Origin: a virus | Lineage: Duplodnaviria; Caudoviricetes | Direction: 5' to 3' (one strand) | Length of the DNA stretch: 56,938 nt | Virus record (IMG/VR): IMGVR_UViG_3300022602_000115 | Location: 1-56,938 of that record | Shown: in pieces, positions 13,171-25,846 of the stretch | Position numbering within the stretch: position 1 is the first letter of the stretch | Layout: each line of letters begins with the position of its first letter | The notes under the pieces: model-generated | The model's input: the letters and a program-made list of their open reading frames with translations, nothing else | Told to the model about the DNA's origin: nothing | The model's database searches: none | Translations under genes and position numbers: made by a program

Positions 13171-13780
13171 CCAGTCCTTTGTCTTTTAGAAATAAAATAA
13201 ACTGTTCATAGTCTTTAAATTGTTTTGTCATATCCAAAATCAGTCCAATTCGTAAGCCTTGTATGTTGTTTACACTATGGATCTCATCATGGTTGAATGT
13301 ATGCCAGCAATGTTGCTCCATCTCATAAGAGAAATATTCAGTAACATCTTGTGGGCGATATACGGTAGATACAAATGGTTCTTCAGTAGTTTTATAGAAT
13401 TTAGTAACAGAAGGTTTATTATCGCTCATCAAATAATAGAGAGAACATTTACGATGACCTCCATCAGTATGAATAAACGAATCTTTACTTTCAATAACCT
13501 GAACATACATGCTATTGATTATTGGAAGATCTAAAGTATTACGAACTACATTCTGTAATGTAACATCAAATCCCTGAGAACGATGTTGTGGTATATGATC
13601 AAATCCATATAGTTGTTTAAGAGTCTCTATACGATCAGATGTTATACCTTCCTCATAGTATTTTTGTCCAATAGTTCCATTGTTATACTTAAATGATTCA
13701 TACTGCGAAGCAACAACAATCAATTTATGTTCTAGTTCGTCGGAGATTCTAGGTAAGTTTACTTTGTAAATTGGATGCAT
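13160..13780 (-). CDS. Putative 2OG-Fe(II)/cupin oxygenase
   Basis: IHTD...IHSV...RIGL arrangement. Confidence 0.65.
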   Translation of the reverse strand: MHPIYKVNLPRISDELEHKLIVVASQYESFKYNNGTIGQKYYEEGITSDRIETLKQLYGFDHIPQHRSQGFDVTLQNVVRNTLDLPIINSMYVQVIESKDSFIHTDGGHRKCSLYYLMSDNKPSVTKFYKTTEEPFVSTVYRPQDVTEYFSYEMEQHCWHTFNHDEIHSVNNIQGLRIGLILDMTKQFKDYEQFILFLKDKGLVDA

Positions 13781-14022: not shown

Positions 14023-14615
14023 ATAAAATTGTAGTTTATTATTGATCTGATTCCATCTTGAGATACACCCGTAGAATGAAATTGATCATGATTGAAGAGA
14101 ATAATTCTACCTTTTTTCGGTTCAACTATTTTATCAACTTCCATCTCATAATTATTAATCTGTTCATTGGATAGATTTTTTTCTCTAGCTGTTTGATATG
14201 TTTCTTTATAAAACACAGTTGGACCAGTAGATTCGTTTACATAATATACTGCTACTTTAAATTCATCAGTACCGTATTGTTCCGGAAGAGCATCTAAATG
14301 TGGTGTAAGAGCAGTTCTGGTTTCGTGTTTTAATGCATGATGCAGAGTTGCTCTTACTTTAAAAATTTTTCTTGGATTAAATTTTTCTATCGGTTTGAGG
14401 AAAATATCATAAGATGGATCTACTAATGTATTATTGTTTGCTCGAACTATCTCAAAAAAGAATGATGGAGATGATATTTCTTTAGTTAGTGGTGGTATTC
14501 TTTTTGGTGTGTTATATCCTCGATGATACACCCATCTTGGTTTATCAGATCCAAGAACAAGATCTTCAATAAGATCTTGGGTTTCTTTATCAACTACATC
14601 ATCTATAATTTGCAT
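14019..14615 (-). CDS. Putative 2OG-Fe(II) oxygenase
   Basis: PHLD, VYYVNESTGPT, PKKGRIILF, FHST, RSIINYN. Confidence 0.8.
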   Translation of the reverse strand: MQIIDDVVDKETQDLIEDLVLGSDKPRWVYHRGYNTPKRIPPLTKEISSPSFFFEIVRANNNTLVDPSYDIFLKPIEKFNPRKIFKVRATLHHALKHETRTALTPHLDALPEQYGTDEFKVAVYYVNESTGPTVFYKETYQTAREKNLSNEQINNYEMEVDKIVEPKKGRIILFNHDQFHSTGVSQDGIRSIINYNFI

Positions 14616-21863: not shown

Positions 21864-21940
21864 TGGTGCGTCAGACAGGAATCGAACCTGCTACAAATCG
21901 TTTTAGAGACGACCACCCCTACCTTTTGGGTTCCTGACGC
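21864..21940 (-). tRNA. Amber suppressor tRNA (anticodon CTA)
   Basis: Acceptor GCGTCAG/CTGACGC-A-CCA; anticodon arm GTCGT-CTCTAAA-ACGAT; T-arm GCAGG-TTCGATT-CCTGT; G instead of U at position 8. Confidence 0.88.
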
Positions 21941-25214: not shown

Positions 25215-25290
25215 TGGGGTATTCTATGAGGATCGAACTCATACTATCTCGGTCACAGCGAGAGGTGCAGACCACTACACTAAGAACACC
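25215..25290 (-). tRNA. tRNA-His(GTG)
   Basis: Loop CTGTGAC, G-1:C73, CCA. Confidence 0.92.
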
Positions 25291-25294
25291 ACTG

Positions 25295-25776
25295 ACCATA
25301 TAGAAACACACTCGGTGCTGATCAGGCACTTACAGGAATTGAACCTGCCACTCCGGAGTCCAGAGCTGTATCCAACAAACCAATGCGCTTGGTCTGAATG
25401 TGTTTTTATATGGTGTAGTAATTGGGTATCGAACCCAACTAGTCGTTTGTTTTACAAACAGGCGATATCATTTCCTGCCGCCATATGCCCCTCGGGTTTG
25501 CAATCCTGCTACGCATACGGTCAAACAACTTGTCGACCATGACTTACCACCATATAGAAACACACTAGACGAGGCGACCTCGTGGCCACAAGTTCCTGCT
25601 TATCTCTAATGTGTTTTTATATGGTGTTGGATATGTGCATTTATCTACTGTCCAACACAATAGGTCATTTCGTAGCACATTACGCTATGATATTTACTAC
25701 CATATAGAAACACACTAACCTTGAAGAAGCCAGGTATAAATCTAGCAACGAATCAGCCAGTATGTTTTTATATGGT
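25295..25776 (-). repeat. Three cassettes of conserved 18-bp inverted repeats enclosing variable inserts
   Basis: ACCATATAGAAACACACT at 25295, 25549 and 25699, paired with A(A/G)T(G/A)TGTTTTTATATGGT at 25397, 25608 and 25759. Confidence 0.9.
25411..25550 (-). ncRNA. 140-nt tRNA-like RNA (acceptor stem, T-arm and CCA; no anticodon arm)
   Basis: GTGGTAA/TTACTAC-A-CCA acceptor with G3-U70; T-arm TTGGG-TTCGATA-CCCAA; helix AGTTGTTTG/CAAACGACT. Confidence 0.7.
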
Positions 25777-25846
25777 AGGGGCACAGAGAATCGAACTCTG
25801 ATTAATAGGTTAAAAGCCTACTACTTTGCCGTTAAGTTATACCCCC
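25773..25846 (-). tRNA. tRNA-Lys(TTT)
   Basis: Loop CTTTTAA, CCA. Confidence 0.93.

Follow-up and report, generated by a model that had tools for sequence, protein, structure and literature searches.

Transfer-messenger RNA (tmRNA) is about 300-400 nt long and joins a tRNA-like domain (TLD) to an mRNA-like domain and pseudoknots. Tag-less forms are known from few sequences, which hold little beyond the bare tRNA-like domain. In the parts of PMC11915505 that treat them, nine 'standard, no CDS' (no coding sequence) tmRNA sequences are listed, with that of phage DS6A as the phage example, and the criterion for the plastid CDS-less forms is a sequence kinship nearer to tmRNAs than to tRNAs. According to parts of PMC4131195 and PMC11915505, the tmRNA form of the mycobacteriophage DS6A is TLD-only and has no CDS, and a TLD-only molecule like it acts as an inhibitor of tmRNA in E. 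coli, possibly through titration of SmpB. Here we report a 140-nt tRNA-like RNA at positions 25550..25411, on the minus strand, of the IMG/VR viral contig IMGVR_UViG_3300022602_000115. The window, as we call the whole analysed stretch of DNA, comprised 56,938 bases and was about 35% complete according to CheckV. The RNA lies within a tRNA array and belongs to a family that, judged by sequence, appears to be a conserved and elaborated phage-borne relative or look-alike of CDS-less tmRNA, fitting that small class. What is new in it is a tRNA-like domain joined to a conserved extra domain, with clear covariation, on phage contigs across many freshwater samples.

The layout of the TLD is common to tmRNA and the family: an acceptor with G3:U70, A73 and CCA, a short D region that contains GG and GAC, and a T arm. 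In the family too the anticodon arm is replaced by a helix (P2), and the T arm follows after 2 nt. Unlike tmRNA, the family RNA is only about 140 nt long, with no conserved frame and no evident pseudoknot. The D motif in the coding piece of a two-piece tmRNA from one member phage, AUGGUUUCGAC, is close to that of the window, UGGUCGAC.

The TLD-only RNA of DS6A was located at L345:28478-28560, where its D motif (UGGUCGAC) is identical to the window's. Both RNAs are phage-encoded and unpermuted, and both have G3:U70 and A73 in the acceptor, a T arm, a helix in place of the anticodon arm and no tag frame. However, the DS6A RNA is about 80 nt long, with a 5-bp helix and a hairpin of about 20 nt, whereas members of the family are 135-141 nt long and have a conserved junction of two hairpins. 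In DS6A, CTA follows A73 and the CCA end is not encoded, whereas CCA is encoded in 19/19 family sequences. DS6A is a temperate phage of mycobacteria, while the family occurs in tRNA arrays of large freshwater phages. The description of the RNA as mini-tmRNA-like in the original prediction, which was made from the sequence alone, is apt for the tmRNA-type D region (as in DS6A and the two-piece tmRNA) and not for a tag, since no tag frame is conserved.

Structure and conservation of the RNA family

Two covariance models were used, R1, built from the single sequence, and R2, a later model that scores members of the family at 119-148 bits. The features of the RNA were as follows (position p in the RNA is 25551 minus the window coordinate).

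25411..25550, minus strand: whole tRNA-like RNA, 140 nt; R2 score 140.2 bits; member of alignment A6 (19 sequences)
25544..25550, minus strand: 5′ strand of the acceptor stem, GUGGUAA, with the G3 of G3:U70
25532..25543, minus strand: reduced D region GUC-AUGGUC-GAC, 12 nt, with a GG loop and the UGGUCGAC motif; a 3-bp stem is possible
25522..25530, minus strand: 5′ strand of helix P2, in the position of the anticodon stem; pairs with 25441-25449
25481..25520, minus strand: hairpin P3, 8-bp stem (25513-25520 with 25481-25488)
25457..25479, minus strand: hairpin P4, 6-bp stem and 11-nt loop
25450..25456, minus strand: conserved single-stranded joiner UGUAAAA; GUARA motif in 19/19
25441..25449, minus strand: 3′ strand of helix P2
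25422..25438, minus strand: T arm UUGGG-UUCGAUA-CCCAA
25411..25421, minus strand: 3′ strand of the acceptor, UUACUAC (with U70), then A73 and the encoded CCA

The 7-bp acceptor GUGGUAA/UUACUAC with G3:U70 and A73-CCA, the canonical T arm, the D-like segment and the helix leading to a compact domain had all been noticed in the original prediction and were recovered on the minus strand, as was the lack of an anticodon arm. Helix P2 (AGUUGUUUG/CAAACGACU) has 9 bp in the window and opens into a 72-nt domain of two hairpins, P3 and P4; it is separated from the T arm by 2 nt. Within the P3 stem lie internal loops that are conserved and, further in, a small GG...CC helix. The domain had been called GC-rich, which holds relative to the genome (50% G+C against 36.7% in the window) and in no other sense. 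Folded as a single sequence, the RNA had a minimum free energy of -43.6 kcal/mol (z = -2.64), which was modestly better than chance, with 1/200 shuffles equally good. The evidence for a fold better than chance is therefore comparative, in the compensatory changes among 19 sequences, and not the single-sequence z.

For the analysis of covariation, 19 distinct sequences were fitted to the model (alignment A6), with a further member, L343, outside the alignment. Six helices were common to the 19 sequences, with standard pairs in 96.7% of 701 cells. Changes on both sides were found in 18/37 pairs, amounting to 88 cells, against 10.9 +/- 1.4 pairs and 30 +/- 5 cells in shuffled alignments, and 0/500 shuffles reached the observed values. 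When partners were slid by 1 to 3 columns, at most 5 pairs with both-side changes and at most 48% pairing were left. Fitting A6 to the structure favours that structure; the slid and shuffled controls and an independent analysis with MAFFT/RNAalifold agree with it. We consider it very probable that these sequences make up a real, selected family of tRNA-like RNAs.

Covariation was strongest in P2, P4 and the T stem. In P2, 6/8 modelled pairs changed on both sides and 90% of cells were paired, and in P4 the corresponding values were 4/6 pairs and 97.4%. All cells of P3 were paired, with both-side changes in 2 pairs. The T arm was likewise paired in 100% of cells, and three of its pairs switched jointly, between UUG/CAA (n=10) and GCA/UGU (n=9). 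The acceptor pairs 2:71, 5:68 and 6:67 varied, mostly in a compensatory way. The D region was 10-12 nt long across the family, with GG and GAC; its stem is unproven because the 3 pairs, though 100% paired, vary on one side only. Conserved unpaired segments were GUAG and CC.AGGGG in P3, the P4 loop, and GUARA in the joiner between P4 and P2, which abuts P2 and is 7-11 nt long across the family. All covarying pairs were nested; an all-against-all scan of column complementarity was too noisy to exclude tertiary pairing.

Pattern scans and profile searches recovered full-length relatives from viral contigs (9 besides the window), metagenome contigs (17) and a bacterial metagenome-assembled genome (MAG; 1 contig). 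The family thereby comprised 20 distinct sequences of 135-141 nt, the 19 aligned ones (pairwise identity 58-99%, median 72%) and L343. Each member inspected was in a phage tRNA array, where a tRNA or a spacer immediately preceded it. Among the viral contigs, a structure-aware DNA pattern returned 95 stretches with 2 true relatives, and a pattern of T arm, U70 and ACCA returned 88 stretches with 8 relatives. One further relative, L127, with a different T stem, came from a profile search of the collected loci. A pattern for the inner domain found 45 stretches in the viral contigs, 8 of them already known and none new. Patterns of the same type detected 17 members in 22 stretches from metagenomes, one being the window's own sequence, and 1 member (L343) in 2 stretches from reference genomes. 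The L343 contig is 183 kb long and was binned with a Haliscomenobacter MAG. Haliscomenobacter was not taken as the host, since the contig, with 20 tRNAs in 8 kb, is phage-like.

The search patterns were derived from the family itself, and the T-arm pattern required U70 and ACCA. The true range of the family is therefore wider, and part of the invariance seen in the T loop and in certain motifs was imposed by the search. The inner-domain patterns left the acceptor unconstrained, and 18/18 members that they added (17 from metagenomes and L343) have G3:U70 and ACCA.

Several searches yielded no relatives. BLAST of positions 25280-25780 against 50,697 phage records, in near and distant modes, gave no match, nor did a blastn search of the first 89 loci with the RNA as query. 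In 80 syntenic loci, found via the phosphoesterase gene, R1 matched ordinary tRNAs only (at most 28 bits), and an R1 search of 42 whole related records found none with the 140-nt RNA. The 9 stretches of a first pattern scan were all judged to be chance matches, and the 131 candidates of an acceptor and T-arm descriptor run on the 80 loci were nearly all pairs of adjacent tRNAs.

ARAGORN called the 140-nt RNA neither as a tRNA nor as a tmRNA. A search with Infernal against Rfam 15, which the original prediction had proposed as a check, gave no tmRNA, YrlA or other family on the RNA at gathering score. At E<=10, over 25250-25800, the sole match overlapping the RNA was to tmRNA_permuted (RF04321), at 12.3 bits (gathering score 47) and E 2.8; it lay at 25377-25438 and covered just the final 28 nt of the RNA. 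The RNA is thus an unannotated gene missed by tRNA and tmRNA finders, and R2 could be used to annotate the family. No description of it was found in the literature searched as full text, a search that extended to article texts and not to supplementary tables such as those of PMC10690425 (8,495 IMG/VR candidates) and PMC11915505.

Alanine identity and likeness to other RNAs

G1-C72, G3:U70, G4-C69, A7-U66, A73 and CCA were invariant in 19/19 sequences. The acceptor determinants of bacterial tRNA-Ala, as given in part of PMC9976931, are A73, G2-C71, G3:U70 and G4-C69. Three of these four are fixed in the family; G2-C71 is absent, the 2:71 pair being U-A in 14 sequences, C-G in 3, U-G in 1 and unpaired in 1. 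Among the 184 tRNAs called by ARAGORN in 10 member loci, G3:U70 was present in 16, namely all 12 tRNA-Ala and 4 others; we take the tRNA-His among the latter to reflect a shift in position due to its additional 5′ base. CCA was encoded in 179 of the 184. The sequence thus supports the tRNA mimic with alanine identity put forward in the original prediction. Charging with alanine is a reasonable inference because the alanine marks are invariant while neighbouring pairs covary, and on these grounds the RNA is probably, though by no means certainly, charged.

The family agrees with tRNA-Ala in A73, G3:U70 and G4-C69, in its T arm and in encoding CCA. It differs from tRNA-Ala in lacking an anticodon arm, in a D region of 12 nt and a variable region of 2 nt, and in a 2:71 pair other than G-C. 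The tRNA model of Rfam (RF00005) had no match on the 140-nt RNA, in which P2 and the junction take the cloverleaf place of the anticodon arm. We also observed an odd tRNA-Ala(UGC) with a 4-nt D loop and its anticodon at position 30 (L228:4807-4881 and L234:8935-9009), sharing arrays with normal tRNA-Ala. The L228 copy was the top non-member match of R2, at 42.4 bits.

Kinship to the stable RNAs C and D of phage T4, which the original prediction named for comparison, was not borne out. T4 rnaC (L271:1909-2047, 139 nt) and rnaD (L271:2054-2172, 119 nt) are of similar size and lie at the edge of a tRNA cluster, and rnaC has a T-arm-like hairpin. However, the annotated end of rnaC is not ACCA, and the acceptor aligned by R1 begins with CGG, leaving no place for G3:U70. 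With filters off, R1 scored 20.6 bits on rnaC, in the T-arm part only, which is the level of an ordinary T4 tRNA. In the bacterial Y RNA YrlA the RNA ends form a Ro-binding stem, and to our knowledge YrlA has no aminoacylatable CCA end. YrlA is, like the family, a non-coding tRNA mimic, as described in part of PMC4201824. A likeness to Y RNAs found no support in Rfam: the 11 matches listed at E<=10 include no Y RNA.

Other oversize CCA-ended tRNA-like RNAs, of 108-121 nt, were observed at L071:2208-2328, L075:2885-2992, L199:1249-1358 and L227:3854-3962. They have a 7-bp acceptor and a T arm, and their inserts differ from that of the family. Those of L199 and L227 possess G3:U70, ACCA and a common AGUAGCC...GGAGCAU segment. 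These RNAs may be further families of the same general kind.

Possible function and ribosome-rescue genes of the carrier phages

The explanation we favour, though tentatively, is that this is an alanine-type tRNA-like RNA that would work like a CDS-less tmRNA, via SmpB and EF-Tu. That SmpB or trans-translation would be its target is argued by analogy and is slightly more doubtful still. What the sequences show is a fold under conservation, alanine marks that never vary, a D region of TLD type and no frame; the four steps that follow are inferred. The RNA would be transcribed on the minus strand together with the tRNA array, and tRNA-processing enzymes would excise it, with RNase P cutting at G1 and 3′ trimming proceeding to the encoded CCA. 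In the window, long flanking duplexes may first serve as double-strand-specific cleavage sites. Host alanyl-tRNA synthetase would then add alanine, and the charged RNA would bind SmpB and EF-Tu like a CDS-less tmRNA. Rescue would be affected in one of two ways: the RNA might compete for SmpB with full tmRNA, or it might enter stalled ribosomes and deliver no tag. Ribosome rescue and a decoy role, both put forward in the original prediction, are hypothetical to the same degree as charging and binding. These two outcomes form the leading model on the precedent of inhibition by a TLD-only molecule. An RNA that is charged and binds SmpB would offer a natural handle on viral tuning of ribosome rescue and would reveal which parts of tmRNA serve which step.

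A number of results weigh against this explanation. Besides the missing G2-C71, RF00023 had no match on the RNA in the 10 member records (the window and the 9 other viral contigs) at E<=0.001, and the curated detectors (RF00023, RF04321, RF01849-51 and ARAGORN) miss the family altogether, the best overlap being the one of 12.3 bits. R2 scored the DS6A RNA at 26.4 bits, a generic level, and a phage tRNA-Ala at 42.4 bits, so descent from tmRNA rather than from tRNA-Ala is not established by these scores; the D-region motif is the sole pointer to kinship with tmRNA over tRNA. The absence of the 140-nt RNA from 80/80 syntenic loci and 42/42 related records means that it is dispensable for the phage group. 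A search for smpB in the window and the 9 other member records, one of them 99% complete, found none, so SmpB would have to come from the host. A permuted two-piece tmRNA was detected above the Rfam cut-off in 6/10 member records, at 97-121 bits (e.g. L331:1470-1879 and L334:1471-1972), and a complete tmRNA of the phage's own sits badly with a purely inhibitory role. Co-occurrence of the two RNAs says little, being unspecific: tmRNA was as frequent in related records without the 140-nt RNA (19/42, and 4/4 of those at least 90% complete). Finally, the conserved P3/P4 junction is not explained by the SmpB model.

It is this junction that gives the main rival its strength. The RNA may be a functional RNA on a tRNA scaffold, in which the P3/P4 junction does the work by binding a protein, a ligand or an RNA, while the tRNA half serves processing and stability and alanine charging is incidental or absent. 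The most conserved unpaired segments (GUAG, CC.AGGGG, GUARA and the P4 loop) are in the junction, to which the SmpB model assigns no role, its helices P3 and P4 are kept by covariation, and the other oversize CCA-ended RNAs with different inserts suggest that the packaging of RNAs in arrays is general. A scaffold, however, has no need of G3:U70, G4-C69 and A73, which are nonetheless present in 19/19 sequences while 2:71, 5:68 and 6:67 drift. Its D region would be expected to be a normal D arm and is instead of the tmRNA type, and no Rfam family matches the insert. We regard this alternative as unlikely but serious; an active junction would be a natural case of a tRNA scaffold yielding a stable small RNA. 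Invariant alanine marks together with a missing anticodon would also suit a carrier that delivers alanine off the ribosome, to a transferase acting on cell wall, lipid or peptide, the lack of an anticodon arm barring it from translation. Dedicated non-translational tRNAs exist in bacteria. The neighbours of the RNA are tRNAs and spacers, with no transferase known to be adjacent (no search was aimed at transferases), and the TLD-type D region would be left unexplained, so that we consider such a carrier improbable.

A true tmRNA of very small size, with an extremely short tag frame ending at the stop in the GUARA joiner, deserves mention because a stop triplet occupies the same place in 19/19 sequences (UAA in 18, UAG in 1), and tags of 2 residues are described for some bacteria in part of PMC11915505. 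However, the frames up to this stop are not conserved, and the codons preceding it are within the P4 stem. Three-frame translations of 3 members contained no shared tag frame. The frames ending at the conserved stop read ...IACL, ...ITMS, and YYPL after an in-frame stop, and an in-frame stop shortly ahead of the conserved one was present in L166 and, by hand reading, in L234. A 10-codon frame of the window ending at the conserved UAA was dropped as a candidate, as it was not conserved. The joiner has merely 7-11 nt before it abuts P2, no pseudoknots are evident, and ARAGORN and the tmRNA models of Rfam are silent. The lack of a conserved reading frame indicates that the RNA is not a true tmRNA, and this alternative is very improbable. 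We think equally little of a functionless remnant, whether of a tRNA-Ala or tmRNA gene in decay or of a tRNA gene split by an intron or insertion. It would accord with the absence of the RNA from the syntenic loci and related records, with an RNA-library contig of a relative in which the 481-nt block is missing between tRNA-Lys and tRNA-His, and with the inverted repeats flanking that block. Against it, 20 distinct sequences (58-99% identical among the 19 aligned) retain all helices through compensatory changes. Removal of the insert would leave no normal tRNA, as what remains has a D region of 12 nt, a variable region of 2 nt and no anticodon loop. An excisable intron is unlikely for these reasons, and because the insert is 72 nt long and neither group I nor any other intron family was among the 11 Rfam matches listed at E<=10.

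The favoured tmRNA-like action could also be part of a wider arrangement, in which large freshwater phages would run their own rescue toolkit, made up of a full two-piece tmRNA and, in some of them, an alanine-charged, frame-less RNA whose junction would give it a distinct job on stalled ribosomes. We consider this unlikely, if worth stating. SmpB-dependent rescue might then spare phage proteins by adding one alanine and no degradation tag, or the RNA might impose a timed block on host tagging. If such a toolkit existed, the family would be the first case of viruses using a class of 'tag-less tmRNA' that is both conserved and elaborated.

These large freshwater phages seem, as a group, to encode a tmRNA themselves and no smpB. 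The two-piece tmRNA is a trait of the whole group, and the 140-nt RNA is an accessory in a minority of it. Four tmRNA loci were compared with Rfam: two were above the betaproteobacterial cut-off and one above the alphaproteobacterial one. The beta type of the two is only a hint as to the host. ARAGORN called tmRNA tags in 3/5 loci, including ANDSSFALAA and ANDSVYALAA. Peptidyl-tRNA hydrolase was found in 0/10 member records. A gene with an RF-1 domain was present in 1/10; this ArfB-like frame of 187 aa (L346; G049:13264-13572) lies directly upstream of the tmRNA at 14047-14356, with which it may form a small ribosome-rescue module.

Genomic setting and flanking elements

The array that contains the 140-nt RNA consists of 29 tRNA genes on the minus strand, from 18.5 to 26.3 kb (ARAGORN and Rfam). 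The RNA sits in a gap of 483 bases, with tRNA-Lys(UUU) on one side and tRNA-His on the other. The window phage is of a large freshwater type, with genes for ribonucleotide reductase, 2OG-Fe(II) oxygenases and a phosphoesterase nearby. By its phosphoesterase, the nearest cultured relative is Synechococcus phage BUCT-ZZ01 (59% identity), at whose corresponding place a tRNA array was not found. Four elements were delimited in the spacers of the gap.

25546..25630, minus strand: upstream spacer hairpin, about 22 bp, -33.8 kcal/mol, z = -5.87; its 3′ arm enters the first bases of the RNA
25292..25417, minus strand: downstream spacer hairpin, -47 kcal/mol, z = -4.90; its 5′ arm begins in the ACCA end of the RNA
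25695-25782, minus strand: third spacer hairpin, z = -7.2
25324-25389, minus strand: tRNA-like element with a T arm and no anticodon loop, inside the 25292-25417 hairpin

The spacers that separate tRNA-Lys, a CCA-ended segment, the 140-nt RNA and tRNA-His are hairpins of 20-24 bp. Their arms (CCAUAUAAAAACACA / UGUGUUUCUAUAUGG) reach into the RNAs, taking in the CCA end of one and the first bases of the one that follows; the two arms that flank the 140-nt RNA show 94% complementarity with one another. The same pair of arms occurs in many related loci (L002-L081), with matching changes on both arms. The hairpins look like processing stems for a double-strand-specific nuclease; they may be either processing stems or the bounds of a repeat-bounded cassette. 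The element at 25324-25389 scored 18.9 bits with the tRNA model of Rfam (gathering score 29) and had a weak mascRNA-like match of 15 bits; its fold was no better than that of shuffles (z = 0.08). The CCA-ended segment at 25627-25697, minus strand, about 70 nt long and placed between two hairpins, had neither a tRNA-like fold nor significant structure (z = -0.89).

Lake and freshwater metagenome runs contained DNA of the stretch. RNA libraries made up 6 of the 22 runs listed, each with at most 1/10 of the sampled words. In the four RNA libraries examined, the contigs were mostly over tRNAs. Depth over the 140-nt RNA was present only in X16 (2.06 and 4.89, in two bins spanning 25393-25514), the other three having none. 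Contigs from RNA libraries are not proof of transcription, and we therefore conclude nothing from them on the expression or the ends of the 140-nt RNA. A contig from RNA library X15 (depth 2.79) joined tRNA-His straight to tRNA-Lys, with four differing letters between them. Its junction, from window position 25291 to 25773, indicates a relative without the entire 481-nt block, in which the 140-nt RNA and the elements next to it lie.

Suppressor-type tRNAs were also observed in the arrays, with the anticodon CUA at 21864-21940 of the window, UUA at L163:7324-7398, and UCA and CUA at L310:12972-13056 and 13569-13645. They could indicate stop-codon reassignment or read-through in these phages.

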